This document shows positions 12,155-58,154 of a stretch of 64,000 nucleotides of DNA, piece after piece. Within the stretch, counting starts at the first letter, position 1; each line of letters opens with the position of its first letter. A program made the translations under genes and the position numbers. The notes beneath the pieces were generated by a model. The model was not told the DNA's origin and made no database searches. It saw nothing but the letters and a program-made list of their open reading frames with translations. The stretch lies in the NCBI GenBank assembly GCA_019322805.1, contig JAHWIC010000001.1, forward strand, positions 132,150 to 196,149. Reading direction: 5' to 3'. This DNA comes from Candidatus Woesearchaeota archaeon (lineage in GTDB: Archaea > Nanobdellota > Nanobdellia > Woesearchaeales > JAHWIC01).

Positions 12155-12194
12155 TTTATCACCAACTTAATATATCACTAGGTTAAATTTCATC

Positions 12195-12290: not shown

Positions 12291-12505
12291 AAAGGTTATA
12301 GTAAGCGAAATTATATAATCAATAGTTTCGCTTACTAAATAGTAAACGCAATCTTTCATAAAATAGTTGCGTTTACTAAATTTTCATCTGCTTTCTTTCC
12401 TTTAAGTCATGGTATAAAGGAACTATGGATGATGATTTTTGCTTTAAAGTAAGGAATAAAGCAAAAATCAGATTTATTATTTTTCTATTGATTCTTTTAA
12501 TTGAT

Positions 12506-13633: not shown

Positions 13634-14109
13634 TTCTTGATATAGTTAAGTAAGCCCCCTTCTTTTATTATATCTAAAGCAAATTTAGGAAAAGGCGTGA
13701 ATTTAAATTCTTTTTTGTTTGTTAAGTTTTTTATTGTTCCTTTTTGTACATCAATCTCTAAATTATCTCCGTTTTTAACATTCTTTGCAATATCCTTACA
13801 TTCAATAGCCAAAAAACCATTATTAATCGAATTTCTAAAAAATATCCTAGCAAAACTATTAGCAATTACTGCTTTTACCCCTGCTCCTCTTAGAGCCCAG
13901 ACTGCGTGCTCTCTGCTTGAACCACAGCCAAAGTTCTCTCCAGCTACAATAAAGTCTCCTTTCTTTACTTTTTTAATGAAACCAGCATCTAAATCTTCCA
14001 TTGCGTGCTTTGCTAATTCAGCTTCTTTATCTGTAGTAAGATATCTAGCCGGAATTATTTCATCTGTGTTTATGTGACTCCTCTTGTAAACATGCGCTTC
14101 TCCTCTCAT
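13630..14109 (-). CDS. leuD: 3-isopropylmalate dehydratase small subunit.
   Basis: 159 aa, aconitase swivel domain ([13 protein letters not shown]). Confidence 0.9.
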
Positions 14110-15371: not shown

Positions 15372-15412
15372 CTTATGTTTACCTCAGTTCTTAACTATGA
15401 ACATTAATGTCG

Positions 15413-15478
15413 GGGTGGGCCAATCACCCAGTTGTGTAGTATTGGGGAGGTCCAAAATGATTTGCGAAGCAAATCATT
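15413..15478 (-). promoter_or_regulatory. Paired hairpins in the 105-bp spacer between the cupin gene stop and the leuC start.
   Basis: AATGATTTGCgaaGCAAATCATT is a perfect 10-bp stem that overlaps the cupin stop codon. GGGTGggccaatCACCC follows. Confidence 0.35.
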
Positions 15479-15740
15479 ATCCTAAATTGTAATGCTTTCT
15501 TACAGCTTTCTTAATATTCCATTTACATTTCATTCCTTGCGGGAAAACAACCCAGTCACCAGCACCAAAATGGAATTTTTCTCCTTCTTCATTAGTTACT
15601 TCAACATCTCCTTCAAGTATCAGACATGTTTCTTTGTCAGAGTATTCCCATGGAAATTCTGAAGCTTCTTTTTCCCAAATCGGCCATGAGCCTGCTTTTG
15701 ACTTTTCTTCATCAGTTGGTTTTCTTATTTCAATTTCCAT
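15477..15740 (-). CDS. Small cupin-domain protein.
   Basis: 87 aa with G(X)5HXH-less short cupin barrel pattern (GDWVVFPQGMKCKWNI). Confidence 0.6.
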   Translation of the reverse strand: MEIEIRKPTDEEKSKAGSWPIWEKEASEFPWEYSDKETCLILEGDVEVTNEEGEKFHFGAGDWVVFPQGMKCKWNIKKAVRKHYNLG

Positions 15741-16230
15741 TTTGAGTCCTTGAAACAGCAGTTACCCCTGTTCTGCTTATCTCTCTCACACCAAAAGGCT
15801 TCATAAGCTCAATAAATGAATCAATCTTATCAGGACTTCCTACAAGTTCTGCAGTAACATCCTTTGTTGTGATGTCTACTATCTTTGTTTTGTATATCTT
15901 TGTATACCTTAGTATCTCTTCCTTTGCTTTTTTGTCAGGTAAAGCTACCTTAAGCAAACACAGCTCGCGAATTATTGATTTGTCTGCAGGCATCTCTATA
16001 ACCTTTATTGTATCAACAAGCTTATTGATCTGCTTCTCCACCTGCTCTAATGTTCTATCATCGCCAATAACAGTGATAACCATCTTTGAAATGCCTTTCT
16101 TTGTTGTTTTTCCAACTGTAATTGTATCTATGTTAAAGCCTCTTCTAGCGAACATACCTGCTATGCGAGTTAAAACACCCGGCTGGTCTTCAACAAGCAT
16201 TGCTATTACGTGTTTTTGTTCTTTTGCCAT
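15730..16230 (-). CDS. ilvN: Acetolactate synthase small (regulatory) subunit.
   Basis: 166 aa, N-terminal ACT domain (HVIAMLVEDQPGVLTRIAGMFARRGFNI). Confidence 0.9.
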   Translation of the reverse strand: MAKEQKHVIAMLVEDQPGVLTRIAGMFARRGFNIDTITVGKTTKKGISKMVITVIGDDRTLEQVEKQINKLVDTIKVIEMPADKSIIRELCLLKVALPDKKAKEEILRYTKIYKTKIVDITTKDVTAELVGSPDKIDSFIELMKPFGVREISRTGVTAVSRTQNGN

Positions 16231-16240
16231 TTTGATTCAC

Positions 16241-17947
16241 CTAAAAAAACTGCCCCTGTGCTTTTATACAGCCGCCAAATGCTTCTTTCAAATGGCCGCC
16301 TGGAGACAGCATGGGCAATATATTTGATTCCTGTTCAACATGAACATCAATCACTGTTGTAACATCTGATTTAACTGACTCTTTTAGAGCAGGTCCTAAT
16401 TCAGATGGCTTTGTAACCCTTAGTCCTTTTAATCCGTAGGCTTCCGCAACCCTAACAAAGTCAGGTACTTTTCCAAGCCATACTTGTGAGTAGCGCTTAT
16501 GGAAAAATATCTCTAACCATTGTCTAACCATTCCTAAATAAGAGTTGTTCATAATAATAACATTTGTTTTGATGCCTTCTTCTTTTGCTGTACCAAGCTC
16601 TTGTATGTTCATCTGGAATGAGCCATCTCCATCTATGCAAAAGACCCGGTTATTTGGTTTAGCAACCTTTGCTCCTAAAGCGGCGGGCAGACCAAAACCC
16701 ATTGTTCCTGCACCGCCTGAACTAATAAAAGTCCTAGGCTTTGAGCGCTTTATATAATGCATTGCAAACATTTGATGCTGGCCAACCCCTGTTGTAACTA
16801 TATCTTCTGGCTTCAAGATTTTATTTAATTCGTCCATAACCATCTTTGGGTGTATCCCCGATGATTTGAATTTAACGCACTTATCGCATGTTGCTTTAAG
16901 CTCTCTCATCCTTTTTGACCATTCGCTTTCCTGGCTTTTCTTGAGCAATTTCCTTAATGCTGCTGTTAGAGCATTTATTGAATTCTTTGCATCTCCAACT
17001 ATTGGAATGTCTACCTTAACATTTTTTCCTATTTCAGCTGGGTCTATGTCTATATGAATGACTTTTGCATTCTCTGCGTATGTTTTCAGGTTTCCTGTGA
17101 TTCTGTCAGAGAATCTGCAGCCAATAGCAATGATTAGATCTGCGTGAACTGATGCGTAATTGGCTATCTTTCTTCCATGCATTCCTACATTGCCAAGGAT
17201 TAATGGATGTCGTTCATCGACAGCCCCTTTACCCATCATTGTTGTAGCTGCTGGTATTCTTAATAACTCGAGCAATTCGTTGATTTCTTTTGAAGCATTG
17301 GCTATTATAACCCCCCCGCCAACAAGCAACAATGGCCTTTGAGCCTTTAAAATAGCTTCTGCAGCTCTTTTTATCTGCATTGGGTTTGGCTGCAAGGTTG
17401 GCTGGAAGCCTTCTATCATAACTTCCTTTGGTAAATCCCCATTTACTTCTCCAACCTGAGGATCTTTTGGAAGGTCTATGTAAACTGGTCCTGGTCTTCC
17501 TTCTGATGCAATCTTATATGCTTTCATTATCATTGGAACTACATCTTTTTGGCTTCTCATCTGGAAGTTATGCTTTGTAATAGGCAGGGTAATCCCCATC
17601 ATATCTGTTTCCTGGAAGGCGTCATTTCCAATCAAACTAACTGGAACTTGCCCACCAAAAGCTATTATAGGAGATGAATCCATGTAAGCATTCATTATTC
17701 CTGTAACTAGGTTTGTGGCTCCTGGTCCAGAGGTTGCAATGCAAACTCCCACTTTGCCTGATGCACGAGCATAGCCTTCTGCGGCATGGGCTGCTCCTTG
17801 TTCATGCCTAACCAGAACATTCTTGATCTTTCCATGATAATCCAAGAAAGCATCGAATAGTGGTATGACTGAGCCTCCTGGAAATCCAAAGGTTATATCT
17901 GTTCCTTGTTTAAGCAAGGTTTTAACGATTGCTTCTGATCCTTTCAT
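16241..17947 (-). CDS. ilvB: Acetolactate synthase large subunit (ThDP-dependent).
   Basis: 568 aa, ThDP-binding motif GDGSFQMN and an FAD-binding middle domain. Confidence 0.95.
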   Translation of the reverse strand: MKGSEAIVKTLLKQGTDITFGFPGGSVIPLFDAFLDYHGKIKNVLVRHEQGAAHAAEGYARASGKVGVCIATSGPGATNLVTGIMNAYMDSSPIIAFGGQVPVSLIGNDAFQETDMMGITLPITKHNFQMRSQKDVVPMIMKAYKIASEGRPGPVYIDLPKDPQVGEVNGDLPKEVMIEGFQPTLQPNPMQIKRAAEAILKAQRPLLLVGGGVIIANASKEINELLELLRIPAATTMMGKGAVDERHPLILGNVGMHGRKIANYASVHADLIIAIGCRFSDRITGNLKTYAENAKVIHIDIDPAEIGKNVKVDIPIVGDAKNSINALTAALRKLLKKSQESEWSKRMRELKATCDKCVKFKSSGIHPKMVMDELNKILKPEDIVTTGVGQHQMFAMHYIKRSKPRTFISSGGAGTMGFGLPAALGAKVAKPNNRVFCIDGDGSFQMNIQELGTAKEEGIKTNVIIMNNSYLGMVRQWLEIFFHKRYSQVWLGKVPDFVRVAEAYGLKGLRVTKPSELGPALKESVKSDVTTVIDVHVEQESNILPMLSPGGHLKEAFGGCIKAQGQFF

Positions 17948-17955
17948 TTTTACAC

Positions 17956-19524
17956 CTACAAACTCTCCCGTGTTTTCTCTTTTATTTTCTTGAAACTTAA
18001 AGCTTTGTTTATTCCCTTTATTAAAGCTTCTGCTGAAGCCATTATTACATCCTCGTTAACAGCTTCTGCTGAAAAAACATTTCCTTTTTTATCTTCGATC
18101 TTGATTGTTACATCTGCTAATGCGTTTGTTCCTCCTGTGATTGCCTTAAGGTTATATTCCTTTAATGTAACTTCTGGGCCTATTATATTGCCTACAGCAT
18201 GTGAGACAGCGTCAACAGGACCTACGCCTTGACCAGTCCCTGCCCTCTTTTTTCCATTTATTATCAAGGTGACTGTCGCAGTTGGTGTTGTTTTGTTTCC
18301 TGTCTCTACTTTTACTTCATCCAAGACAACATTTTGCTCTTCTTCTGATAAAGTGCCTATAACATCATTAGCTATTGCTATTATATCCTCCCTAACTACT
18401 TCTTTCTGCTTGTCTGCAAGCTCCTTTATCTTAGACATTATCTGATCAATATGCTTTTTTGATAATTCGTAGCCCATATCCTTTAGTACAGCCTCTACAG
18501 CATGTCTGCCTGAGTGTTTGCCTATTACTAGGCCTGTTCCTGTCCAGCCAACATCGCCTGGCTTCATAATCTCATATGTTGCTTTTGCTGAAAGTACACC
18601 ATGCTGATGTATTCCTGCTTCATGGGCAAATGCATTTAAGCCAACAATGGCTTTATTTCTCTGGACTCTTAGGCCAGTTAAGTCTGAAACCATTCTTGAG
18701 GTTTTGTAAATCTCTTTTGTGTTGATTGTTGTTGTAAAGTTCTTGAAAAAGTCCTTTCTTGTCTTTAGGTTCATTACAACTTCTTCTAAGCTACAGTTAC
18801 CTGCACGCTCTCCGATTCCATTTACACAGCACTCTACTTGTGTTGCACCATTCTGTATTCCTGCAAGTGAGTTAGCTACTGCAAGCCCCAAATCATTATG
18901 GCAGTGTACACTTACTGTTATGTTTTTTGCTTCTGGAACCTTTTCAAACAAATACTTGATTCTATAACCAAACTCCTCTGGTTCTGCATAGCCAACTGTG
19001 TCTGGAATGTTAATGGTTGTTGCGCCTGCTTTGATTGCAGCCCTTACAACATCGCACATATAATCAAGGTCAGTCCTAGCAGCATCCTCTGGACTAAATT
19101 CAACATCCTTGCAATATTTGCTAGCGTGTTTGACTCCTTCTGTAACCATCTTGATTATCTCTTTCTTTGATTTTCTTAGTTTCTTTTCTATGTGAATCTG
19201 AGATGTTGCAATAAAGGTATGGATTCTTGGTTTCTTTGCATATCTTACAGCTTTCCAAGCCCTGTCAATATCCTCTTTCATAACCCTGGCTAAGCCGCAG
19301 ATTATGGGTCCTTTTACTTCCCTAGCAATAAGCTTAACAGCCTCAAAATCACCTTCAGAGCTTATAGGAAAACCTGCTTCAATTATATCTACACCAAGCC
19401 TAGCTAGTTGTTTAGCTATGATTAGCTTTTCCTGGATTGTTAAGGAAGCACCAGGTGACTGCTCACCATCTCTAAGTGTAGTATCAAATACCTTGATCTT
19501 TGTTGGTTGTTTTGTTGAAGTCAT
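17956..19524 (-). CDS. leuA: 2-isopropylmalate synthase (or citramalate synthase of the same family).
   Basis: 522 aa, FDTTLRDGEQSPG DRE-TIM barrel N-terminus and C-terminal LeuA-dimer regulatory domain. Confidence 0.9.
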   Translation of the reverse strand: MTSTKQPTKIKVFDTTLRDGEQSPGASLTIQEKLIIAKQLARLGVDIIEAGFPISSEGDFEAVKLIAREVKGPIICGLARVMKEDIDRAWKAVRYAKKPRIHTFIATSQIHIEKKLRKSKKEIIKMVTEGVKHASKYCKDVEFSPEDAARTDLDYMCDVVRAAIKAGATTINIPDTVGYAEPEEFGYRIKYLFEKVPEAKNITVSVHCHNDLGLAVANSLAGIQNGATQVECCVNGIGERAGNCSLEEVVMNLKTRKDFFKNFTTTINTKEIYKTSRMVSDLTGLRVQRNKAIVGLNAFAHEAGIHQHGVLSAKATYEIMKPGDVGWTGTGLVIGKHSGRHAVEAVLKDMGYELSKKHIDQIMSKIKELADKQKEVVREDIIAIANDVIGTLSEEEQNVVLDEVKVETGNKTTPTATVTLIINGKKRAGTGQGVGPVDAVSHAVGNIIGPEVTLKEYNLKAITGGTNALADVTIKIEDKKGNVFSAEAVNEDVIMASAEALIKGINKALSFKKIKEKTRESL

Positions 19525-25987: not shown

Positions 25988-26005
25988 TTTGATTTATTTT
26001 TATAA

Positions 26006-26060
26006 TGCGGGAGACGGGTCTTACGAGCCATAATTCCTCCGGAATTAACGGCATTCGAAG
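26006..26060 (-). repeat. 55-nt direct duplicate of the 3' portion of the adjacent tRNA-Leu(GAG) gene (T-loop + T-arm intron + acceptor 3' strand + discriminator).
   Basis: Identical to 26135-26189. Homology extends degenerately about 10 nt further (GCTGCG-TCGGC vs GCTGCGCGGG). Confidence 0.7.
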
Positions 26061-26135
26061 CCGACGCAGCTGAAAAGTCAGCTGGCACCTTCGTGGGTTT
26101 CCTCGCTTCGCTCGTCAAGCCCACTTAACTATGAT

Positions 26136-26281
26136 GCGGGAGACGGGTCTTACGAGCCATAATTCCTCCGGAATTAACGGCATTCGAACCCGCGCAGCCA
26201 CTAAGGCACAAGGCCCTCAACCTTGCTCATTTGACCATTACAGCCTTAAGCAAATGCTCAAAGGTCTCTGACACCCCCGCA
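26136..26281 (-). tRNA. tRNA-Leu(GAG) (class II) interrupted by two non-canonical introns. Intron 1 is in the D-loop (about 26239-26263, 25 nt). Intron 2 lies between the T-loop and the T-stem 3' strand (about 26148-26182, 34 nt).
   Basis: Minus strand: acceptor GCGGGGG/CTCCCGC + A73; D-stem TCA/TGA; D-loop GAGACC[intron]TGGTCAAA; anticodon arm CAAGG-TTGAGGG-CCTTG; variable arm GCC-TTAGT-GGC; T-arm GCGGG-TTCGAAT-[intron]-CCCGT. The mature length is 87 nt. Confidence 0.7.
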
Positions 26282-26292
26282 TAAGCAGGAGT

Positions 26293-28768: not shown

Positions 28769-28851
28769 AATACATACATTGTGTGTAAAAGAAGGTTATA
28801 TAAGATTACATACACTGTGTGTATTGGTGACTTGTATGAGTAAAATTTATA
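28769..28851 (+). promoter_or_regulatory. tRNA promoter region: two copies of the quasi-palindromic motif ACATACAyTGTGTGTA (28769-28786 and 28805-28825), then a TATA box AAATTTATAA (28842-28851) about 21 nt before the tRNA.
   Basis: Same motif as at 41615-41634 and 56104-56123. Confidence 0.5.
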
Positions 28852-28871: not shown

Positions 28872-28979
28872 CTGTTATGGTGGCCATGGTGTAGCTCGGC
28901 AGCACTGGAGACACGTTTTAAACGCTTCAATGTGGTATGCCATGCAGAAATCTCCTAGGGCGAGTTCAAATCTCGCTGG
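28872..28979 (+). tRNA. Intron-containing tRNA (Glu/Gln-like D-arm). A 39-nt insert lies between anticodon stem halves GGAGA/TCTCC, i.e. a 32-nt intron plus the loop. The anticodon is unresolved and CCA is encoded.
   Basis: Acceptor GTGGCCA/TGGCCAC + C73 + CCA; D-arm GTGT-AGCTCGGCA-GCAC; T-arm GCGAG-TTCAAAT-CTCGC; 4-nt variable loop; T-rich stretch after the 3' end. No placement of the intron yields a loop with U33. Confidence 0.55.
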
Positions 28980-28988
28980 CCACCCCAT

Positions 28989-39927: not shown

Positions 39928-40037
39928 TTTATCTTAGTTAAATAGCAGATATTTAAAAGTGTAACTATTTTAGAATGCTCCTAAATCTTTTTAACTTAAG
40001 TTAATTCTCAACAGACATTGTTAGGGGGTGTTATATC

Positions 40038-40760
40038 GTGGGTCTGTTTGGTAAAAAGAAAAAGGTTGTTTCTGGATTGGATATCCCGCCTGCTCCGCCT
40101 CCAGTTAAGATTAGTGAAGAGGTTTCTGCTCCTCCAGAAGCTATTGAGCTTCCAGAGTTCCCTAGTTTACCAGAATTTCCTCCTCCGCCTGGAAAGGGGT
40201 TGCCTACTTTTGAGGAAGGGTTAAAGAGGGGAGGGAAGGCTCCTCCTGTAAAAGAGGCTATTGAAAAAGAGATTCCACCACCAATGGAAGAGATTCCTCC
40301 TCCACCTACAGAAGAAATGGAGATGCCCCCACCGCCTATGAAAGCGCCGCTGCCAGTAAAAGCCAAAGGAGATATTCCAGAAGCTCCACCAGCCCCAGGG
40401 ATTCCGCCGCCGCCTATGAAAGCGCCTGAAGAAGAACTTCCAGAGGCTCCTCCAAGACCTGAAGAAGCAGCACCTGAGATGCCGTCATTTGAGGCTGTAG
40501 AAGAGGAGATTGGCGAGGAAGAAAAGGTTGGTATGAGGGTCACAGAAGGTCCTATCTTTATAAGAGCTGATAATTACAGATATGTCCTGGATGAGTTAAG
40601 TGTTGCAAGAAACATTGTAAAAGAGTCTGGTGAATTATTTGCAGGGATTGAGAACATAAGCTCGAGCAGTGAACAGGCATATGAAAATTGGCGTTTGTGT
40701 TTAGAGGATGTAGAAAGAAAGTTGCTGTATGTTGATAAATCATTATTTGGAGGAGGGTGA
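40038..40760 (+). CDS. Hypothetical protein with a poly-proline N-terminal half (PPPP/PPAPPP repeats) and a conserved about 65-aa C-terminal domain shared with the next two genes.
   Basis: N-terminal MGLFGKKKK then Pro-rich repeats. C-terminal PIFIRADNYRYVLDEL...ENWRLCLEDVERKLLYVDKSLF. The antisense 40031-40543 ORF is a shadow. Confidence 0.6.
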   Translation: MGLFGKKKKVVSGLDIPPAPPPVKISEEVSAPPEAIELPEFPSLPEFPPPPGKGLPTFEEGLKRGGKAPPVKEAIEKEIPPPMEEIPPPPTEEMEMPPPPMKAPLPVKAKGDIPEAPPAPGIPPPPMKAPEEELPEAPPRPEEAAPEMPSFEAVEEEIGEEEKVGMRVTEGPIFIRADNYRYVLDELSVARNIVKESGELFAGIENISSSSEQAYENWRLCLEDVERKLLYVDKSLFGGG

Positions 40761-40766
40761 TTTGAT

Positions 40767-41006
40767 ATGGAAGAAGTAAAAGCTGGAAGTCCTGTTTTTG
40801 TAAAAATTGATGAATATAAAGACGTGCTGGAAATAATTGGTGTTGTAAAAGATAAGATAGAAGAAGCCAGAAATACATTAGGAAGGATAAATGAACTAAA
40901 GAATGATGAAGACGGTGAATTAGAGATGTGGAATTCAAAGCTTGAAGAGATTGAGGAAAAGATTGAATTTATTGACAAATCGTTGTTTCAACCTGAAACC
41001 TTATAG
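40767..41006 (+). CDS. Stand-alone copy of the same about 65-aa domain (paralog of the C-terminus of 40038-40760).
   Basis: PVFVKIDEYKDVLEII...EMWNSKLEEIEEKIEFIDKSLF aligns colinearly with the upstream gene's C-terminus. Confidence 0.6.
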   Translation: MEEVKAGSPVFVKIDEYKDVLEIIGVVKDKIEEARNTLGRINELKNDEDGELEMWNSKLEEIEEKIEFIDKSLFQPETL

Positions 41007-41014
41007 GTGATTAG

Positions 41015-41401
41015 ATGGCTAAAGGAGAGAATGTCTTTTTTGTAGGAATAAAAGATCCAGATGATCTGAGAAGAAATGTTCTTGAGACTGCTAGAGGAGC
41101 AATTCAAACACTGCAGCTGTTTGAGAAGTTCAGGAATATAAGAGATGAGAAGATAAAGGCCATTAACCAGCTTAAAAGTGATTTAAGGGAAGTTACAAGG
41201 CTGGTCTCGAAACTAAAGACTGCTTTGCCTAAGGCGAAGTTAAGGGTAAAGCTCCATGAGCATGAAAGATTAAAAGGCGGGAAAGCAAAGAGAAAGAAGA
41301 AACCAAAAGAAGTTGTAGTAGAGGGGGCTGCAAAGGGCGAACTTGAAAAGCTCGAGGAAGAGCTGTCTGCTATTGAAGGTAAATTAGGCGGTTTGGGTTA
41401 A
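41015..41401 (+). CDS. Third member of the tandem family: related N-terminal segment (NVFFVGIKDPDDLRRNVLE) followed by a coiled-coil and Lys-rich tail.
   Basis: 128 aa, 8-nt spacing from the upstream gene. Confidence 0.55.
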   Translation: MAKGENVFFVGIKDPDDLRRNVLETARGAIQTLQLFEKFRNIRDEKIKAINQLKSDLREVTRLVSKLKTALPKAKLRVKLHEHERLKGGKAKRKKKPKEVVVEGAAKGELEKLEEELSAIEGKLGGLG

Positions 41402-41444
41402 GGTTTATTTCTATTATTTTATCATTATTAAATTTATCACTTGG

Positions 41445-41634
41445 TGCACTTTTAGCATGCACAAATAGTTGTGCACTTGGTTGAGTTTTTTATTATTTAA
41501 TTTTAAAAATTTAAAACAATTAAAAATAAATAAGGTTGAACTTCGTAGTTTAGACAAACATTGTTTGGCTTCTTCTGTTTCTGCACCTAATGGTTAATTT
41601 TGTTGATGGTGGCTATACATACAATGTGTGTATT
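41445..41634 (+). repeat. Intergenic repeat family, copy B (GTGCAC palindromes / GCACAAatagTTGTGC hairpin, T-run, AACAATTAAAAATAAATAAGG box, CAAACattGTTTG hairpin, ACATACAATGTGTGTATT motif).
   Basis: About 80% identical over about 170 nt to copy C (55950-56123). It lies between the tandem-domain genes and the tRNA-Leu(CAA) promoter. Confidence 0.65.
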
Positions 41635-41686
41635 AAGAAGTTTGATAGTAAACTATAAATAAAACAATATTTTTCGCTCTCTCTAT

Positions 41687-41853
41687 GCGGGGATGCCGGA
41701 GACCTAAAGGCATATGCCCTAAGGCCGGATTGGCCAAACGGGATAGACTCAAGGCATTTGAGTGTTGAGTGCTCGTCAGAGTGCGATGAAAGAATCATTT
41801 GTAAGTCATCTATTGGCTTAGTGCCTACCGGGGTTCGAATCCTCGTCCCCGCA
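41687..41853 (+). tRNA. tRNA-Leu(CAA) (class II) with two introns: a D-loop intron (about 41705-41730, 26 nt) and a canonical 37/38 anticodon-loop intron (41754-41807, 54 nt).
   Basis: Acceptor GCGGGGA/TCCCCGC + A73; D-arm CCG-GAGACC[intron]TGGCCAAA-CGG; anticodon arm ATAGA-CUCAAG[intron]A-TCTAT (mature loop CUCAAGA); variable arm GGC-TTAGT-GCC; T-arm CGGGG-TTCGAAT-CCTCG. A TATA box AACTATAAATAAAAC lies about 25 nt upstream. Confidence 0.75.
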
Positions 41854-41869
41854 TTTAATTTATAGAATT

Positions 41870-44542
41870 TTAACGGCTAACATCAAATAATTTTTCTGTC
41901 ATCCATCTAAAGCCTAATGTCTGTTTTGTGTAAGGTATTTTAACTGACCAGTACAGGTGCCCTACCAGCCTCTCAGCCAATGACCTATGCCCTGGCCTCT
42001 TATGATATTCTTCTATTTCTTCTGCAGGGCCTATCTTGTGTTTGTGTTTGAGTTCTTTTTTATGTGCTCTCACAGCTAACTGATAAGCGTGTAGATGTTT
42101 TGCCCAGAACCTTTTTTGTTCTTTCGCATCTGCAGGTTGATTTGGCTGCTCAGGTTTGTTCATCGCTTTTCTAGCAAAACTCATTGCGTAGTCATGAACC
42201 CAGTAAAAGTGTTCAGGTGGTGGACGTTCATCCCCAAAGCCCCGCCAGAACTCGACATAAACTATCGGATAAACATGTTCAAGGACTTCCTGTAAGGTAG
42301 CCGCGCCTGCCCGTCTTGCTTGTTCTCCAATTAGTGCTTCATGCCTGTATAATTTTTTATAATCATGGATTAATTGTTTAATGCCTTTTGGACCCCGGTA
42401 TTTTGTTTCCAGTGATGAGGCAACTCCTGGCATTAAAACGCTTGCTTTTTCAACGGCAATATGTAATGCTGACCTTAGCTCGTTTTGTGTGGGCTCTCTT
42501 CCACCAGCTTGTGTCTGAAGCATATTCTCAAACTCGTTCAAGACATCATCAAATAATAATGCATGAGCTAGTTCATCTTCTCTTAATCCCTGAAGGATGT
42601 TCCATGATTCTGTTGCTCGTTCTCTTGTTATATCTCCATCAAGATAACGCCTGCAGGTTTCTTGTGCAGCATAGTCACGGTCTGCTCTGATAGGATTTCT
42701 TGGTTGTCTAATTTTTGCAGCAAGCCCTTCAGGATCAGGCAGCGCGTCTCCTAGAAATGCATAATACCTGTACCTCCCATCAAATCCCTCTGAGTTTCCG
42801 CTGGATAGATATATCTCCTGTAACCCCTGCCTTGTATGGTCTATTGACTTCTTGAACACTGCTTCTGTGATAAAATCTCTTATCTTCCAATAGTTAGCTA
42901 CGGCTTTGATATGATCATCAGCAGTTTGGATAAATGAATTTGCCGCAGTAGCTGGTTCTCTTCCTGTTATAGACGCGTCATTGCTGCTTTCCCCAAGAAA
43001 TTGAAGCCCCCTACATAAAGGTGAGAAAACATCCCATATTTCTTCTGCTGGATGGGCCTGCATTCTGTATGCCTTTCCTATTTCATCAATGCCTTGTGCC
43101 TCCAAATAATCAGCTGCACCAGGCCCAAAAAGAGTAGTTATCTCACTTACTGCCTTTTTACGTACTCCTTCAAGCTGTTCAATAGTTGGCTCTGGAACAG
43201 GATCATCAAGCTGGGCTTCTAAATTACTTATTTGAGCTGATATACCGGCTAGTTCCGGGTCTGTTGGATCTGGAACAGCATCAAGTTTGGCTTGTAAAGT
43301 GGCTATTTGGGCTGGTAAAATGGCTAGTTCTGCTTCTCTTGCTTTACGAATCTCTGCGGTAACATTATCAGGTATGTTAGATTTTATGTATTCCTGATAT
43401 AGCTGCTCCCCTTGTTTTGCTTGCTCAAGCCTTTGCTTTAAAAACTGCATTTGTGATTCCAGCTCTAACCCAAGCAACAATGAATGATAGATTCTTTCCT
43501 TTACTTTTTGTTTTTGTTCATCACTGCCATTGTATTCTGTTTTAAGCCATGTTGTACATATATTATCCCTAATGTTTCTCATGGCTTTTCTAAATCTTTC
43601 ACGGATTTTTTCAGGATTCTGATTTGATCCAAGTACGCTTTCCCTCAGATTAGTAATTTCCGAAACTTCTGCTTCCAAAAGCTGCGGATTCAAGTGTCTA
43701 ACGCCCTTATACCAGGCTTTCAGAGCTTGAAGTGGGGTATAAATTACTCTAGAGCGCTCCAGTAGCCACTTATGTATTCCTTCATCAATGCCTGCTTTAC
43801 GCCTGGCTTCATATGTTTCCCTGTGAGGTAAGAGGACATGAGCAAGACCTAATGCTTTCTCATAGTACGGAAGGAAATCCTGCATTGTAGGGTCGGCTAT
43901 GTCAGGGTTCTTTACTTCGCTACCTTCCTGTTCCCTACGCCTTTGTTCAGTTTTCTTATTATATAGGCCACGCAATTCCTTAACAAGTATCCTTCTTAGC
44001 AGTTCATCAAAATCTGCTGCACTATCCTGATTGCGTTCTTCTGGAGGAATATATTTTGCTGATATCTCATCTTCTCCTAGTTTTTCAAATTCTTTGCGAA
44101 CAAGCAAATGAAGCTTATCCTCTTCTCCTTTTAATACAGCCACTTGCATATCCAGAAACCTTCGAACATGCATATCGACAACAGGCACTACCCTTCCCAT
44201 AAACATTTCATATAAAACCTCTCCAAGCGGCTTGCCTGATTGTTCAAGAGCAGTTTTAACCCACTCAAAGGTATGGGGTATTGCTTTTATCTGCCAGTTA
44301 TGTTTAGGATGGTAGCTATCGCTTAGAATAGTGGCAGCCACAAAACCAAGCTGTCCAGCTACTCTTGAAGCATTGGCTATTGCATCATCATCATCCTGCC
44401 CATATGCCTTAAAACCTTTAAATGATTTAATGTGTTTTCGCGCCTCTTCAGGGTCTACTCCTGCGTCATTAAATTCTCTTAGAAAATCCTCTAACCTATC
44501 ATATGTAATTTCAGCTTCGAATGACATTTTTCTATAATGCAA
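41870..44542 (-). CDS. Large hypothetical protein (890 aa) of atypical Arg/Glu/Ala/Leu-rich composition, immediately 3' of tRNA-Leu(CAA).
   Basis: Long uninterrupted ORF with no recognisable catalytic motifs and coiled-coil-like central region (LEAQLDDP..., LQAKLDAVPDP). Confidence 0.5.
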   Translation of the reverse strand: MHYRKMSFEAEITYDRLEDFLREFNDAGVDPEEARKHIKSFKGFKAYGQDDDDAIANASRVAGQLGFVAATILSDSYHPKHNWQIKAIPHTFEWVKTALEQSGKPLGEVLYEMFMGRVVPVVDMHVRRFLDMQVAVLKGEEDKLHLLVRKEFEKLGEDEISAKYIPPEERNQDSAADFDELLRRILVKELRGLYNKKTEQRRREQEGSEVKNPDIADPTMQDFLPYYEKALGLAHVLLPHRETYEARRKAGIDEGIHKWLLERSRVIYTPLQALKAWYKGVRHLNPQLLEAEVSEITNLRESVLGSNQNPEKIRERFRKAMRNIRDNICTTWLKTEYNGSDEQKQKVKERIYHSLLLGLELESQMQFLKQRLEQAKQGEQLYQEYIKSNIPDNVTAEIRKAREAELAILPAQIATLQAKLDAVPDPTDPELAGISAQISNLEAQLDDPVPEPTIEQLEGVRKKAVSEITTLFGPGAADYLEAQGIDEIGKAYRMQAHPAEEIWDVFSPLCRGLQFLGESSNDASITGREPATAANSFIQTADDHIKAVANYWKIRDFITEAVFKKSIDHTRQGLQEIYLSSGNSEGFDGRYRYYAFLGDALPDPEGLAAKIRQPRNPIRADRDYAAQETCRRYLDGDITRERATESWNILQGLREDELAHALLFDDVLNEFENMLQTQAGGREPTQNELRSALHIAVEKASVLMPGVASSLETKYRGPKGIKQLIHDYKKLYRHEALIGEQARRAGAATLQEVLEHVYPIVYVEFWRGFGDERPPPEHFYWVHDYAMSFARKAMNKPEQPNQPADAKEQKRFWAKHLHAYQLAVRAHKKELKHKHKIGPAEEIEEYHKRPGHRSLAERLVGHLYWSVKIPYTKQTLGFRWMTEKLFDVSR

Positions 44543-54724: not shown

Positions 54725-55567
54725 TCTCAATCTCTTAACTCTTTCTTTTATTGGCGGATGTGTTGAAAACAAAGTAAAAAATCCTCTTCCACGGAAAGGT
54801 GAAGCTATCATCAAATGAGCAGTTGTTTCTGTTGTTGAGCATGGCCTTAAAGGTGCGTGATGTATTCCTGTTTCTAGTTTTTCCAAAGCACTTGCTAAAC
54901 CATGGCCATTATGAAGTACTTTAGCAGCTGATTCATCAGCTTGGTACTCTCGGTTTCTTGAGATTGCAAGCCTTATGATTGTTGCGAGTATTGGTGTAAG
55001 AATTGCTAAAACTAAGAGCTCTAAACCAGAACCACCCCTGCGGTCTCTTCCACCATAGCCAGCAAACATTGCACCCCATCTTGCAATCATTGCAACATAA
55101 GAAATGACTCCTGCGATTGTTGCTGCAACTGCTTGTATCAGTGTATCGCGATTCTTGATATGGCTCATTTCATGAGCAATAACCCCTTTTAATTCTTCTT
55201 CATCAAGTAATTTGAGTATGCCTGCGGTAGCTGCAACTGCTGCATGTTTTGGGTTTCTTCCTGTTGCAAAAGCATTTGGATTATGGCTAGGAACAATATA
55301 CACCTTAGGCATTGGAATGTTAGCTAAATGTGCAACATCATGAACAATTTTATGCAGTTTAGGTGCTTCTGCTTCTGTAACTGGTTTTGCACGGTAAATT
55401 GCCAAAACAAGCTTGTCAGAGTACCAGTAAGCACCAAAGTTCATAATAACTGCAAAGATAATAGCAAAAGTCATTCCATCAACTCCCCAGAATGAGCCTA
55501 CCCATAAGAATATACCTGTAAGTGCTGCGAGCAAGACTAATGTTCTGAATTGATTTTGAAATGACAT
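54710..55567 (-). CDS. htpX: Zinc metalloprotease HtpX (M48).
   Basis: 285 aa, HEMSHIKNRD HExxH motif, N-terminal TM helices. Confidence 0.85.
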   Translation of the reverse strand: MSFQNQFRTLVLLAALTGIFLWVGSFWGVDGMTFAIIFAVIMNFGAYWYSDKLVLAIYRAKPVTEAEAPKLHKIVHDVAHLANIPMPKVYIVPSHNPNAFATGRNPKHAAVAATAGILKLLDEEELKGVIAHEMSHIKNRDTLIQAVAATIAGVISYVAMIARWGAMFAGYGGRDRRGGSGLELLVLAILTPILATIIRLAISRNREYQADESAAKVLHNGHGLASALEKLETGIHHAPLRPCSTTETTAHLMIASPFRGRGFFTLFSTHPPIKERVKRLRSRSF

Positions 55568-55573
55568 GCTATT

Positions 55574-55936
55574 TTATAATTCAATTTTATTTAAATAGCT
55601 TACTAGTCCTTCTATATGGCTAAGTTTTGTGTTTTTCTGTAGAAACTCGCGAAATCTGTTATCAACCTTAACTCCATGCCTTTGCAAGCCAGAATTTAAC
55701 CTTCCATAAAGTTGTTTTCCTTTTTTGTCAAAGTCAGTAAGAATTGTTATCGTTTTGTTTTTCTTCGATAGTTCCTCGATGATTTGAAACATTGGTTTTT
55801 TGCTGAGCGTAACAATGTTTTTTAGCCCTAAATAATTTAGTGCTTTTTTGTCTTTTATTCCTTCAACAATTATTATATTTTCAGAATTCTTTAGTCTTTC
55901 AATCTCTTCTTCAATTTCATCAGTGTTTTTTATCAT
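55574..55936 (-). CDS. Small stand-alone Toprim-domain protein.
   Basis: 120 aa, IIIVEGIKDKKALNYLG and TILTDFDKKGK Toprim acidic motifs. Confidence 0.6.
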   Translation of the reverse strand: MIKNTDEIEEEIERLKNSENIIIVEGIKDKKALNYLGLKNIVTLSKKPMFQIIEELSKKNKTITILTDFDKKGKQLYGRLNSGLQRHGVKVDNRFREFLQKNTKLSHIEGLVSYLNKIEL

Positions 55937-55949
55937 TAGGTGTTGTTAC

Positions 55950-56123
55950 ACATGCACAATTAGTTGTGCACTTGATCCAGTTTTTTATTTTTTAATTTTT
56001 TATAATTATAACAATTAAAAATAAATAAGGTGGAACTTCGTACCTCTGTCAAACTTTGTTTGGCTGCAGTATTTGTGAACCGGGTGATTTATTTCTAATG
56101 ATAATACATACATTGTGTGTATT
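55950..56123 (+). repeat. Intergenic repeat family, copy C.
   Basis: GCACAAttagTTGTGC hairpin + T-run + AACAATTAAAAATAAATAAGGTGGAACTTCGTA + CAAACtttGTTTG + ATACATACATTGTGTGTATT. No tRNA follows this copy. Confidence 0.65.
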
Positions 56124-56572
56124 CAATATCTCTTACTGAAAAAATCCTTTAGTATTTTCTTATGATCAAAGGCAAGCTTAGGCAGTTTTTTCTTTGTAAA
56201 TACTTTAGCTTCAACTGCATCGTCTTTTCCTTTTAATTTTCCAGAACCTTTTGCAATAAATATAACTCCAATTGTATGTCCGCGAGGATCTCGTTTAGGG
56301 TCAGAATAAGCATGGAACTGCCTGAGCAGCTTAACTTTCAAATTGGTTTCTTCTTTTGCCTCGCGAACAGCTGCTTTTTCTAAAGTCTCTCCATAATCAA
56401 CAAAGCCGCCAGGTATTGCCCAGCCATAAGGATGGTTTTTTCTTTTAATAAGAACTATTCCTCCTTGATACTTTATGATTATGTCAACAGCTATTCCAGG
56501 TAATTTTTTCATAATAATCTCTAATTTATTTTTATTTAAATAATTATTGTAGAAACAATTAAATATTCTCAT
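56123..56572 (-). CDS. Nudix hydrolase.
   Basis: Nudix box [24 protein letters not shown]. The probable real start is the internal MKKLPG. Confidence 0.8.
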
Positions 56573-56594
56573 AAATTACTTTTGTGGGGGTTAA

Positions 56595-58154
56595 ATGATA
56601 GGCTTATCTACAACCTTAAGGTATTACAAAAGAGAGGACATACAGAACGAAATAGTCAGAAATGCAAAAGACAGAGAAGTCGCAGTTAAGTTTGGAGATA
56701 AAGGCTTTGGAAAAAGGCCAGACATCTTAAATTATCCTGCTGATATCCTAGAGCTTACAAAACAAGGTGCTACCTCCTTTCATGCTTCTGAAGAGCTTTG
56801 GAGTAATCCACTAAGGCTTGACCCGAATATGAGGAAAAAGGATATTGAAGAATTAAGAATTGGCTGGGATTTGGTTATTGATATTGACTGCCCTATTTGG
56901 GATATATCAAAGATAACTGCGTGGTTGATTATAAAAGCGTTAAAAGCTCAGGGTATTACATCAATTTCAGTAAAATTTTCTGGGAATAAAGGTTTCCATA
57001 TAGGAGTTCCATTTGAGGTTTTTCCTAAAAGGGTAGGAAATGAAGAAATAAAGAGCAGGTTTCCAGAGGCTACAAGAAAAATTGCTATGTATTTGTTAGA
57101 TTTCGTTGGTAGGGAATATACTAAAGTTGAGTCTGGTAAGATAATATTTGGAAATAGGTTTAAGGTCGCTGTAGATAAATTAAGCAAACTTGTAGGAAAA
57201 AATTTTGATGAATTGACCTATCTGATATGTAAAAATTGTAAGAAAAAAGTTGAAAGAAAAGAGGAAAAACATGAAGAAACTGTTGTGAGCAGTGATGATA
57301 TAGACTTTATGAATGAAGTATCATACGAAGGAAAACTCAAAAAAGGTTCTTTCAAAAAGAAATCATGTGGTTGTAACAAGCCTGATTACGAAAGTAAATT
57401 TAATCCTTTATCTGTAATAGACGTAGATACAATTTTAATTTCTTCGAGACATCTTTACAGAATGCCATATTCATTGCATGAAAAGTCAAAGTTGGTATCT
57501 ACACCATTCAATCCTGAAAAGGTTATGGACTTCAAAAAAGAGTTCGCCGAGCCAGATAATGTAAAGATATCCAGATTTAGGTTTCTTGACAAAGAAAATG
57601 TAAAGGCTGGTGAGGGGCTGCAATTACTTGATAGGGCTCTTACCTTTGGTTTAGAAGAAGAAAAAGAAGAAGTGCAGATAAAGAAAGAATATGAAATGCC
57701 AAAATCGGCTTTACCGATAGATTATTTCCCGCCATGTATTAAAAAAATCCTGAATGGCCTGGAAGATGGAAGAAAAAGATCACTATTCACCTTAGTAAAT
57801 TTCCTAACGTGCGTTGGCTGGGACCATGACAAGATTGAAAAGCTCTTAAGAGAGTGGAACAAGAAAAACCAAGAGCCATTAAGAGAGGTGTTATTGGTGG
57901 GCCAATTAAGATACCACAAGCAGCAGAAAAAGAGAATCTTGCCTCCAAACTGCGCAAATAAGATGTATTACCAGGACATAGGTTGCTGTATACCTGATAA
58001 TCTATGCCAAAAGATAAAAAATCCTGTTAATTATGCCCGAAGAAAGGTTGGGGTAAGAGAAAAAGCAGAAAAACCAAAGAGACGGCAACTAACAGAAGAA
58101 CAGAAAGAAATGCGTAGAAAGTACAGAGAAAAGCTAAAAAAAGAGGATAAATAG
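56595..58154 (+). CDS. priS: DNA primase: PriS catalytic domain fused to a C-terminal PriL-CTD-like four-cysteine domain.
   Basis: 519 aa. Archaeo-eukaryotic primase motifs LVIDIDCP (DxD) and SGNKGFHIGVPF, plus a C-terminal 170 aa with C...C...CC...C (CVGW...CANK...GCCIPDNLC). Confidence 0.65.
   Translation: MIGLSTTLRYYKREDIQNEIVRNAKDREVAVKFGDKGFGKRPDILNYPADILELTKQGATSFHASEELWSNPLRLDPNMRKKDIEELRIGWDLVIDIDCPIWDISKITAWLIIKALKAQGITSISVKFSGNKGFHIGVPFEVFPKRVGNEEIKSRFPEATRKIAMYLLDFVGREYTKVESGKIIFGNRFKVAVDKLSKLVGKNFDELTYLICKNCKKKVERKEEKHEETVVSSDDIDFMNEVSYEGKLKKGSFKKKSCGCNKPDYESKFNPLSVIDVDTILISSRHLYRMPYSLHEKSKLVSTPFNPEKVMDFKKEFAEPDNVKISRFRFLDKENVKAGEGLQLLDRALTFGLEEEKEEVQIKKEYEMPKSALPIDYFPPCIKKILNGLEDGRKRSLFTLVNFLTCVGWDHDKIEKLLREWNKKNQEPLREVLLVGQLRYHKQQKKRILPPNCANKMYYQDIGCCIPDNLCQKIKNPVNYARRKVGVREKAEKPKRRQLTEEQKEMRRKYREKLKKEDK

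Follow-up and report, generated by a model that had tools for sequence, protein, structure and literature searches.

The intergenic repeats A, B and C, found in a 64,000-nucleotide stretch of the genome of a Candidatus Woesearchaeota archaeon (hereafter the window), are assemblies of discrete modules that are independently present or absent at orthologous sites. We hold, with middling confidence, that they represent lineage-restricted, transposase-free hairpin modules which have accumulated in the gene-start regions of some Woesearchaeota, and which might move by means of a hairpin and secondarily function as promoters. The best reading of the comparisons presented below is that these modules are nested, most closely resemble the PATE/SMR elements of haloarchaea, and possibly supply promoters to the genes near them. 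They are not terminators, nor can they be shown to be genes for small RNAs, although they could be mistaken for either.

DPANN archaea are usually described as possessing streamlined genomes with little repetitive DNA. Here, a woesearchaeote with compact and mostly leaderless genes nevertheless contains nested hairpin repeats, which are gained or lost between close relatives at the boundary between promoter and start codon. Movement of the modules along a hairpin-dependent single-strand route, if real, would extend the range of PATE/SMR-like elements from the haloarchaea to the DPANN archaea and would point to a still unseen transposase partner. If the modules donate promoters, they would offer a concrete route for the splitting and rewiring of operons in these organisms.

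Identification and extent of the repeat family

A palindrome-bearing 21-mer, GCACAAWTAGTTGTGCACTTG, has exact matches at positions 12197, 41459 and 55954 of the window, where the chance expectation, even with up to 3 mismatches allowed, is 0.17 matches. The three-copy family with a shared inverted repeat, first perceived in an earlier note on this DNA, is hence real. Copies B and C are homologous across 41434-41634 and 55930-56123, with alignments of 75.2% identity over 226 nt and 76.7% over 202 nt (E ~1e-37 to 1e-39) and an ungapped stretch of 115 nt with 85% identity; in light of these values (75-77% over ~200 nt and 85% over the ungapped part), the initial estimate of about 80% over about 170 nt was a fair one. 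The segment AACAATTAAAAATAAATAAGGTKGAACTTCGTA is restricted to B (41515) and C (56010), with an expectation of 0. Copy A retains just AACAATTAA of this segment, and its similarity to B and C (~70% identity) is restricted to 92-128 nt, the shared part amounting to ~70-95 nt. The CAAAC-N3-GTTTG hairpin (41555-41567 and 56050-56062) and the distal motif ATACATACAWTGTGTGTAT (41615-41633 and 56104-56122) are both present in B and C, as had been reported. What was not borne out is the conception of the repeat as a single piece, in place of which we recovered three or more modules that can be separated from one another and form a mosaic. The possibility that the palindrome is a reflection of restriction-site biology was discarded, since GTGCAC occurs 7 times against an expectation of 6.4.

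Beyond the window, a scan of a genome collection (metagenomes) with the exact 21-mer recovered only the three window copies and two further ones, D and E, and the metagenome assembly containing A, B and C yielded no more than one further exact 21-mer. Such exact-word scans undercount the family, because a copy with one base different (G, see below) was missed by the metagenome scan. Among the GTDB species representatives, the one exact match of the 21-mer lies in a long ORF (radical-SAM-like by eye) and was treated as a chance occurrence. Viral scans returned no match to the palindrome; the viral matches of the ATACATACAWTGTGTGTAT 19-mer, on ten contigs of which nine belong to one unrelated phage family (~50% G+C, iteron-like context), were dismissed.

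Anatomy and distribution of the palindrome core

The unit common to A, B and C is a 68-71-nt core containing a 20-bp palindrome. On the plus strand of the window its layout comprises a (T)TATCA flank, 16-18 nt, the palindrome ATGCACAA-WTAG-TTGTGCAC, ~30 nt of T-rich sequence and a TTAWAACAAT flank. An eight-copy alignment and the nhmmer core model place core copy B at 41440-41510 of the minus strand (E=6e-20), flanked by TTATCA (41434-41439) and by TTAAAACAA (from 41511); its palindrome, ATGCACAA-ATAG-TTGTGCAC (41457-41476, 20 bp), has its foot 17 nt from the TTATCA junction. The minus strand likewise carries core copy C (55936-56005, E=8e-19; palindrome 55952-55971) and core copy A (12178-12246, E=6e-17), in which the palindrome reads GAGCACAA-TTAG-TTGTGCAC (12195-12214). 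Altogether, nine core copies, namely eight full versions and one remnant, were found in at least three lineages of Woesearchaeota. Other than those in the window, these include copy G on the same contig, 5.7 kb to the left of the window, D and F on L006, E on L007, one on L030 and the remnant on L033.

Terminal inverted repeats are absent from the core, the terminal 14-mers of six cores agreeing with their reverse complements at just 4-6 of 14 positions, the level of AT-rich background. Likewise, no junction repeats indicative of a target-site duplication were seen in six core copies, and none at the filled/empty pair of the TYW3 locus (see below). The sequences adjoining the core are conserved: the plus-strand flank is TTATCA in 6 of the 9 copies and ends in ATCA in 8 of them, the opposite flank is TTAWAACAAT, and the identical flank pair surrounds the core wherever both junctions are readable (A, B, C, D, F, G and the L030 copy). 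The far end of the core is devoid of a conserved terminal oligonucleotide, and the adjoining TTAWAACAAT is conserved in its place, so that this border of the core is only putative, or might be a recombination junction.

Type I and type II modules and the distal motif

B and C are two copies of a ~190-nt composite, in which the core is followed by a type II module and then by the ATACATACAWTGTGTGTAT hairpin. The type II module of B (41511-41586, minus strand) consists of the A/T box TTAAAACAATTAAAAATAAATAAGG, GGTTGAACTTCGTA and the hairpin CAAAC-ATT-GTTTG, with the A/T box being promoter-like on the plus strand and a T-rich run on the minus strand. That of C (56006-56082, minus strand) has its A/T box at 56010-56042 and the hairpin CAAAC-TTT-GTTTG. 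Matches to the type II model are limited to B, C and L030 (three-way alignment), and in the last of these the composite of core and type II module recurs in another lineage at a non-orthologous site.

The distal part of B, CTAATGGTTAATTTTGTTGATGGTGGCT followed by ATACATACAATGTGTGTAT(T) (41587-41634, plus strand), is common to the upstream regions of tRNA-Leu in L031 and L033, and represents either the native flank of the tRNA gene or the right-terminal hairpin of the ~190-nt element. Its equivalent in C, GGTGATTTATTTCTAATGATA followed by ATACATACATTGTGTGTAT (56083-56122, plus strand), reaches precisely to the codon (56123-56125) with which the minus-strand NUDIX gene stops. The ATACATACAWTGTGTGTAT motif precedes tRNA genes, and two extra copies of it lie on the plus strand of the window (28770-28788 and 28806-28824; 0.01 expected), the second ending 55 nt before an intron-containing tRNA gene (28880-28987). 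The gene for tRNA-Leu(CAA) with two introns (41687-41853, plus strand), identified by ARAGORN on the orthologues L031 and L033, is a neighbour of repeat B and not a part of it, and possesses its own promoter-like site, TAAACTATAAATAAAA, from 41649 (promoter matrix score 13.0).

Unlike in B and C, the core in A, D, F and G is joined to a two-hairpin module of type I. The version adjoining copy A (12258-12482, minus strand), delineated by matches to the type I model, comprises a closing stem and the hairpins F1 and F2, and an uninterrupted version with no core attached is found at 2442-2577 of the plus strand (nhmmer E=1e-35). The type I structure, a three-helix module, shows 5 compensatory pairs across lineages. 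Beside copy A, the 5' arm of F2 is split by an 83-nt insert of two hairpins (12296-12378), which D and G share at this position and which has inverted ends (TAGTAA...TTACTA) with no target duplication. Interpretation of this insert as a bulge-helix-bulge intron was dropped, as the exon flanks appear by eye to be unable to pair beside the junctions.

Presence and absence of modules at orthologous loci

At four orthologous loci, the modules present vary from one lineage to another. At the TYW3 locus, exactly 69 nt separate TGTTATAA from TGATAA in L006, and these two sequences are contiguous in L029, with both flanks aligning. The internal 69-nt gap emerged in a global alignment with cheap gap extension, and MAFFT placed the gap at the end of the alignment. 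This is the one clean filled/empty pair, the comparison at the Toprim locus being ambiguous in AT-rich sequence. At the latter locus each lineage is different: the window has the NUDIX gene and copy C, the upstream gene overlaps the Toprim start in L018, and only a type I module is present in L020 and L023. At the methyltransferase locus, L029 has a gap of 10 nt, L030 a type II module with a core, and L006 a type I module with a core. At the tRNA-Leu locus, we found nothing in L034, a short remnant in L033, a type I module in L031, and the core with a type II module in the window. The palindrome itself is not kept at the orthologous sites of the Toprim, methyltransferase (L029), TYW3 (L029) and tRNA-Leu (L031, L034) loci. 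The proposal of a MITE-like mobile element can be retained in that discrete units, present or absent at orthologous sites, favour a mobile or propagating entity located in promoter regions; it fails with respect to a classical MITE, because both terminal inverted repeats and a target duplication are missing from the core.

Gene context and the terminator interpretation

The gene contexts originally assigned to A, B and C were upheld, with Toprim, NUDIX, Iso_dh (leuB-type) and a 79-aa stand-alone AsnC/RAM-domain gene confirmed as neighbours, and tRNA-Leu(CAA) by way of its orthologues. A gene start is faced by 7 of the 8 full cores, the sole exception being copy B. In six of these (A, C, D, F, G and L030) the distance from core end to ATG is 0-30 nt, and the opposite-strand gene starts 17-50 nt downstream of the hairpin (37-50 nt except in C). 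Core copy A precedes the RAM-domain gene (11915-12154) by 23 nt, counted to its GGTGAT-led start, and the final base of core copy C is the A of the Toprim start codon (55934-55936). The distances are larger in copy E, with ~120 nt between hairpin and gene start and ~100 nt from the core end.

This arrangement bears on the assertion of the earlier note that the palindrome and the following T-run look like a terminator, which would end a plus-strand transcript. In B a plus-strand gene does end 39 nt before the core, with a T6 run after the palindrome. However, a plus-strand gene lies upstream in only two of the nine copies, B and the L033 remnant, and these occupy the same locus. The palindrome and T-run of A and C are not located 3' of a plus-strand gene, because the adjacent gene is on the minus strand and starts there; furthermore, the T-run begins 9-10 nt past the stem of the palindrome, and termination in archaea requires oligo-T only. 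A variant of this explanation would have the type II module (the CAAAC hairpin with TTATTTATTTTT, on the minus strand) terminate an upstream co-directional gene, as its position directly after a co-directional stop codon in C and L030 and its T-richness on that strand might suggest, but there are only three type II copies, and one of these, B, has no co-directional gene upstream. A function in termination, in either form, seems to us very unlikely.

Promoter signals and the small-RNA interpretation

The description of the A/T box as BRE/TATA-like is supported by a promoter weight matrix built from the window's own promoters: on the plus strand the box scores 11.3 in B, 9.6 in C and 9.7 in A, as against a training median of 12.9, and the predicted start in B is at ~41549. 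These scores would allow the repeats to be small-RNA genes, with the box AAACAATTAAAAATAA acting as the BRE/TATA of a ~90-125-nt plus-strand transcript that begins at ~41549 in B and ~56044 in C and includes the CAAAC and ATACATACAWTGTGTGTAT hairpins. A similar box, AAACAATTAAATATTC (score 11.0), is present 42 nt before the start of the primase gene, and in C no plus-strand gene follows the A/T box. Furthermore, a U-G wobble in ATACAUACA/UGUGUGUAU works on the plus strand only, where the CAAAC hairpin also gains three pairs.

The folding results are at odds with such a gene: the putative transcripts have z-scores between +0.7 and -1.3, longer stretches between -0.2 and -1.6, and single-sequence folds of either strand are not significantly stable. 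The consensus fold of the three homologues has an energy of -7.2 or -2.0 kcal/mol by strand, with an unfavourable covariation term of +1.11 or +0.33 kcal/mol, respectively, and the sole structure conserved among them is the 5-bp CAAAC hairpin. Searches of Rfam, covering the window (gathering thresholds; E up to 1) and seven small loci (E up to 10), recovered RNase P RNA and SRP RNA only, with no family matching the repeats. Moreover, the best-conserved part of the repeat lies upstream of the predicted start and outside the transcript, the box is degraded in L030, where the 'transcript' would enter the 3' end of a gene, and the distal hairpin is common to upstream regions of tRNA genes that have no A/T box. 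We therefore judge small-RNA genes to be a highly improbable explanation. A C/D-box small RNA, considered on account of UGAUG-like strings in B and C, was also rejected, as the two boxes do not occur together in the required order.

Host regulatory cassette or mobile module

The promoter matrix also has gene-ward matches inside the core of B (10.5), C (11.6) and E (9.7), with predicted starts at or within the palindrome; no gene-ward match scoring 7 or more was found in A, D, F and G. Starts on the palindrome would be in keeping with the usual place of an archaeal repressor, and suggest a different explanation, namely a regulatory cassette of the host, which we regard as possible if somewhat doubtful. 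In such a cassette the palindrome, situated over or just after the transcription start, would either serve a dimeric transcription factor as its operator or form a hairpin at the 5' terminus of the mRNA. It would have arisen by duplication of promoter regions ('putative mobile promoters'), giving rise to a small regulon that includes the RAM-DUF1805-ilvC genes, the rpe-trpFBA genes, the Toprim gene, the methyltransferase and TYW3.

Several features of the core are consistent with this. The core copies are old and divergent, with pairwise identities of 56-80% among the full versions (80% for C vs D, 78% for A vs G and 56-75% for the remaining pairs), and the palindrome, intact in 7 of the 8, is conserved far better than the remaining core, a difference for which selection by the host on an operator would be a further explanation. 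The palindrome is at a fixed spacing, 36-38 nt from the TTAATTGTT box and 15-17 nt from ACCNARTGAT, and the facing of gene starts by all full cores other than B fits as well. The gene-ward strand of the palindrome pairs in 96.4% of cells versus 87.5% on the other strand, and its outer pair is G-U in five copies, with one compensatory pair in F. In outline, the core also fits the definition of putative mobile promoters (PMC3488235).

The comparative evidence, however, argues against a cassette maintained by the host. At TYW3 the unit has been inserted or deleted as a discrete block of 69 nt, and close relatives lack it at their orthologous promoters. The L030 copy retains the remaining core but has a decayed right arm in its palindrome, and in the L033 remnant the palindrome is wholly gone. 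Covariation in the palindrome is not significant, the observed score being reached by 73 of 500 shuffles. The genes concerned share no function, and B faces no gene at all. Most core pairs fall under the 80% identity by which putative mobile promoters are defined (PMC3488235); the only clear pass is B vs C (85% over 115 nt), with B having no downstream coding sequence.

Under the preferred interpretation as mobile hairpin modules, the palindrome would be the structure by which a hairpin-recognising single-strand machinery (IS200/IS605-type 'peel and paste'), or a related one, moves or copies the unit. Secondarily, the core may provide the gene that it faces with a portable promoter or 5' leader, because the unit lands just 5' of TGATAA near start codons and its A/T-rich half resembles the BRE/TATA of this genome. 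Neither TnpA nor TnpB nor any further transposase came to light in the window and the related loci, the latter partly screened for protein families. A replication-linked orientation, as expected for IS200/IS605 elements, was also considered: the four copies on the contig have the same orientation, but C, which lies beyond the GC-skew switch, retains that of the local genes, indicating that orientation follows the local genes, with no sign of a link to replication.

A more far-reaching version of the mobile interpretation, which we consider unlikely, holds that the 70-nt core is a self-propagating 'plug-in promoter or leader', moved as single-stranded DNA via its hairpin and homing to TGATAA 5' of BRE/TATA elements, Shine-Dalgarno sequences or start codons. 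Insertion of such a core would divide translationally coupled genes, as well as biosynthetic operons, into separately controlled units, for example NUDIX|Toprim, leuB|RAM-ilvC and trpC|rpe-trpFBA. If true, this would amount to a class of mobile regulatory element that is not described in DPANN archaea, and the neighbouring type I module, with its five compensatory pairs, could then constitute a second new structured element of this system.

Comparison with known repeat systems

The closest parallels to mobile hairpin modules of this kind are seen in the PATEs (palindrome-associated transposable elements) of Haloquadratum walsbyi, which are derived from IS200/IS605 elements, lack inverted terminal repeats and target duplication, have near-terminal palindromes and heterogeneous sequences, and include mobile 52-bp 'terminal-only' forms (PMC3119063). 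Similarly, the core is too short for a transposase, has its palindrome near one terminus, is heterogeneous outside it, and displays neither inverted terminal repeats nor target duplication. Its insertions are lineage-specific, with flanks contiguous in a relative (one clean pair), and elements nest within elements. The differences are also considerable. No IS605-type transposon with ends matching the core was found in the window and the partly screened related loci, the far end of the core has no conserved terminal oligonucleotide, and there is a single palindrome, at distances of 16-18 and ~30 nt from the two ends of the core. Palindromes at both ends, as in PATEs, would be present in the ~190-nt composite of B and C only if the ATACATACA motif belongs to it. 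Furthermore, the present family is small, with nine copies found as against tens to hundreds, and the host is a DPANN archaeon with 37% G+C, in which the copies are strikingly tied to start-codon-proximal sites.

IS200/IS605 elements themselves have ends with two palindromes, in contrast to the one of the core. At the left end of IS608, 19 nt separate the conserved TTAC from the foot of the hairpin (PMC3201880), and the core is comparable in having a short conserved outside sequence, (T)TATCA, at 16-18 nt 5' of the hairpin foot, and in its insertion with no gain or loss of target bases. It differs in having no right end of the IS608 type (hairpin, 10 nt, cleavage tetranucleotide), and no tnpA gene was found. 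When inspected by eye for guide-target complementarity as in IS608, the copies gave no consistent pairing of (T)ATCA with the four bases on the 5' side of the hairpin foot, and this possibility was set aside. Bacterial REP/BIME and MITE families, such as ERIC and Correia, are similarly short palindromic extragenic repeats that sometimes occur within operons and can carry promoter parts; the present repeats differ from these in their low copy number, archaeal host, absence of a GTAG-type REP head and the lack of any RAYT transposase among the genes seen.

The SMR-A small mobile repeats of Haloquadratum, ~110 bp in length, insert into the palindromes of PATEs (PMC3119063), and the 83-nt insert in F2 of A, D and G offers a parallel, given its inverted ends, absence of target duplication and identical position inside the F2 arm in three copies. 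It is shorter than SMR-A (83 vs ~110 nt), has no sequence relationship to it, consists of two tandem hairpins, and is found beside A and not beside B or C. Repeats of the present kind also break metagenome assemblies, with the contigs L004 and L006 ending inside them.

Copies of the repeat and anatomy of the core

The palindrome that an earlier note described from three intergenic sites of the window (copies A, B and C, at about 12195, 41445 and 55950) is genuinely shared, the 21-mer GCACAAWTAGTTGTGCACTTG being exact at 12197, 41459 and 55954, with 0.17 matches expected at up to three mismatches. B and C are 75–77% identical over 202–226 nt, with an ungapped 115 nt at 85% identity; A resembles them (~70%) over 92–128 nt only, and a 33-nt A/T box is limited to B and C. 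Inspection of the gene context upheld the neighbours named in that note, and orthologues showed the tRNA beside B to be Leu(CAA). The interpretation of the repeat is decided by one correction, namely that minus-strand genes start at the palindrome: a RAM-domain gene at 12154 (A) and a Toprim gene at 55936 (C), each adjoining it.

The core of the repeat is a unit of 68–71 nt with a 20-bp palindrome. In the gene-ward direction (window minus strand) every copy reads ATTGTTWTAA, ~30 A-rich nt ending in AATAAAAAAC, AAYCAAGTGCACAACTAWTTGTGCATG, ~11 variable nt, ACCNAR and TGAT(A), and the spacing of these elements is constant across copies. Of the eight full cores, all but B point towards a gene start. 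The core ends 0–30 nt from the ATG before the RAM-DUF1805-ilvC genes (A), Toprim (C), a methyltransferase (D on contig L006, and the copy on contig L030), TYW3 (F, L006) and the rpe-trpFBA genes (G, locus L025), and ~100 nt from it before a ribosomal protein L10e gene identified by eye (E, contig L007). At C, exactly the 186–187 inserted bases separate the stop codon of NUDIX from the start codon of Toprim, and the last base of the core serves as the A of the Toprim ATG.

In the eight-pair stem, 96.4% of cells pair on the gene-ward strand versus 87.5% on the other; read gene-ward, five copies have G-U as their outer pair, and a single compensatory pair is seen in F. Covariation, proposed in the earlier note as a check of the two hairpins, bore out neither. 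The observed palindrome score was reached in 73 of 500 shuffle trials, so that the gene-ward strand is only hinted at as the hairpin strand; for the CAAAC-N3-GTTTG hairpin, only 5 bp are kept among three homologues and the covariation term is unfavourable. Copy E is accompanied by two more degenerate palindromes, CACAATCAGTTGTGC and GCACAATTATTTGTGG (region L007:1400-1600), and GGTTGTG (CACAACC) occurs in the loop of F2, a hairpin of the type I module; the half-site CACAAC thus recurs outside the full palindrome.

A scan of species-representative genomes yielded nothing but a chance match inside a gene, and a metagenome scan returned the three window copies together with D and E. A profile of the aligned copies detected no additional copy within the window; it gave F, G (same contig, 5.7 kb to the left of the window) and the L030 copy. 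L033 has a remnant of the core. D, F, G and the L030 copy share with A to C the plus-strand flanks (T)TATCA and TTAWAACAAT. Full cores are pairwise 56–80% identical, with the palindrome intact in seven of eight. The L006 methyltransferase is on no other contig, the L006 locus is syntenic with GCA_019322485.1, and L006 comes from a different organism than the window. The core family is small, yet present in at least three lineages.

Type I and type II modules

On its far side the core is joined to either of two modules that are unrelated to each other. In B, C and L030 this is type II, which comprises the A/T box and the CAAAC-N3-GTTTG hairpin. Type I, found at several loci in several Woesearchaeota lineages, is joined to the core in A, D, F and G, and stands without it at window 2442-2577 and on L020, L023, L029 and L031. 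It spans ~130 nt, with a closing stem (TAAATCY/RGATTTA), two 12–13-bp hairpins (GATTTTTGCCTT..AAAGCAAAAATC and GAAAATTCCTTT..AAAGGAATTTTC) and a third, variable helix between them, and shows five compensatory base-pair changes among six sequences (window 2442-2577, plus strand, and 12258-12482, minus strand; L006:1974-2107; L020:4586-4716; L029:12325-12454; L031:1316-1461). Type I could be a two-palindrome element like the PATEs of Haloquadratum, or a structured RNA.

In A, D and G the 5' arm of F2 is split at the same position by an 83-nt insert, whose three copies (window 12296-12378, L025:4509-4591, L006:4752-4838) are 96–100% identical. It consists of tandem hairpins, AGTAAGCGAAA-15 nt-TTTCGCTTACT and AGTAAACGCAA-15 nt-TTGCGTTTACT, distinguished from each other by compensatory changes, and has inverted ends (TAGTAA..TTACTA). 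The metagenome contigs L004 and L006 terminate inside this insert, and L007:1150-1400 holds similar hairpins.

Presence and absence at orthologous sites

At TYW3, exactly 69 nt (copy F) separate TGTTATAA from TGATAA on L006; on L029 the two are contiguous and both flanks align, giving the one clean filled/empty pair. At Toprim, the window has the NUDIX gene and C, L020 and L023 have the type I module only, and on L018 the Toprim ATG is overlapped by the upstream gene. At the methyltransferase, L029 has a gap of 10 nt, L030 has type II and a core whose palindrome has decayed in its right arm, and L006 has type I and a core. At tRNA-Leu, L034 has nothing, L033 a ~40-nt remnant (it retains TTATCA and the 18 nt that precede the palindrome in full copies, but not the palindrome itself), L031 an inverted type I module, and the window a core with type II. 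Taken with the lack of terminal inverted repeats and target duplication at the cores, this picture is one of discrete units undergoing insertion, deletion and nesting, and not one of a conserved regulatory site. Presence of the modules is lineage-specific; they are modular, and their flanks are conserved. Lacking terminal inverted repeats and target duplication, the core is not a MITE, one of the options raised in the earlier note.

Origin and possible function of the modules

To evaluate promoters, we trained a weight matrix on 31 window promoters. Its consensus is AAAnnTTTAWATA, which in about half of the cases begins 34–37 nt ahead of the ATG or the 5' end of the RNA; most genes that have a promoter of their own thus look leaderless. 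As a plus-strand promoter the A/T box scores 11.3 in B and 9.6 in C. Otherwise the small-RNA genes suggested earlier find no support: the putative transcripts fold no better than shuffles, and an Rfam search of them returned no family match. The palindrome had also been likened to a terminator, but a plus-strand gene lies upstream only at B and at the L033 remnant, which are the same locus.

We give about even chances to the cores being mobile modules. The palindrome would then be the signal for a hairpin-dependent copying route, and the A/T-rich half of the core might provide a promoter. In the gene-ward direction the matrix gives 10.5 for B, 11.6 for C and 9.7 for E, with predicted starts falling on the palindrome; in C and the L030 copy the core directly adjoins the start codon or Shine-Dalgarno sequence, so that an internal promoter or read-through is required. 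Against mobility stand the one palindrome per core instead of two, the uncertain far boundary of the core and the single clean filled/empty pair; no transposase partner was seen in the protein-family screen of the window or the gene tables of related loci. Duplication of a host operator or promoter would also suit high conservation in the palindrome and low conservation elsewhere, but the presence/absence pattern at orthologous sites makes us regard it as rather unlikely. The two explanations are not mutually exclusive.

Among published elements, the PATE/SMR set of Haloquadratum comes closest (PMC3119063). PATEs are heterogeneous in sequence, with near-terminal palindromes, no inverted terminal repeats and no target duplication; their 52-bp terminal-only forms still seem to move, and small repeats insert into their palindromes (PMC3119063). 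The hairpin foot lies 16–18 nt from the conserved outside sequence (T)TATCA, a distance reminiscent of the IS608 left end with its 19 nt (PMC3201880). A literature search on palindromic intergenic repeats in Woesearchaeota found nothing. This kind of element is already known from haloarchaea and bacteria; the present one would be a variant that has a single palindrome, lies close to start codons and occurs in a DPANN host. Small selfish repeats are the simplest reading, nothing points to a new class of function, and the finding is modest but real.

The distal motif and tRNA genes

The distal motif ATACATACAWTGTGTGTAT occurs in B and C, and twice more (28770-28788, 28806-28824) before another tRNA gene. 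The window, L031 and L033 all have it upstream of tRNA-Leu, together with the preceding 20–28 nt and at an unvarying distance from the TATA box of the tRNA. In the window it precedes two intron-containing tRNA genes by 53–55 nt; before tRNA-Leu(CAA) it is conserved at L031:1491 and L033:5479 and absent in L034. It may be an upstream box of tRNA promoters that possibly travelled with a B-like segment whose copying gave rise to C. Alternatively, the motif could be the hairpin at the right terminus of a two-palindrome element ~190 nt long, the L033 remnant being a terminal-only form of it; this reading stays alive because part of the pre-motif sequence, as read from the sequences, also ends the type II module of L030, where there is no tRNA.

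Default ARAGORN and Rfam found no tRNA in the whole 64 kb, because the tRNA genes (41687-41853, 28880-28987, 26001-26290) have introns at unusual positions. tRNA-Leu(CAA) has a 29-nt D-loop insertion that its orthologues lack, and a 43-nt intron after the anticodon. A 63-nt direct repeat, 97% identical (26001-26063 and 26130-26192), appears to be the 3' portions that two tRNA-like genes of the minus strand, with an insertion in the T-arm, have in common. Nine related phage contigs of ~50% G+C (L008, L010-L017) each contain a single occurrence of the 19-mer ATACATACATTGTGTGTAT, adjoining GTGTGTATG and gaattatccaaa repeats; a tenth viral match (L009) has a different context, and these phage contigs are unrelated to the window.

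Genomic setting

The window is archaeal, with archaeal RNase P RNA and SRP RNA, and has 37% G+C. It corresponds to bases 132066-196065 of the 261-kb JGI contig Ga0309836_1000003, and the Toprim protein beside C shares 100% identity with one from a Candidatus Woesearchaeota archaeon. GC skew changes sign at ~40000-44000 (cumulative minimum near 42 kb), where gene orientation also turns from mostly minus to mostly plus; this point of divergence, where copy B and tRNA-Leu lie, could be close to a replication origin. The ilv/leu and trp biosynthesis clusters (window 5116-19524 and L025:1-9000) are large and unusual for DPANN, and contain copies A (leuB|RAM-DUF1805-ilvC) and G (trpC|rpe-trpF). The primase (window 56595-58154; 519 aa) fuses the small and large subunits; at L020:2942-4495 it is called as two pieces, which could reflect a frameshift or assembly error. 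Contig L003 is 99.9% identical to window 54983-56711, and its first 212 nt (L003:1-212), which have no match to the window, suggest that a rearrangement at the strain level lies immediately past the promoter region of NUDIX/primase.
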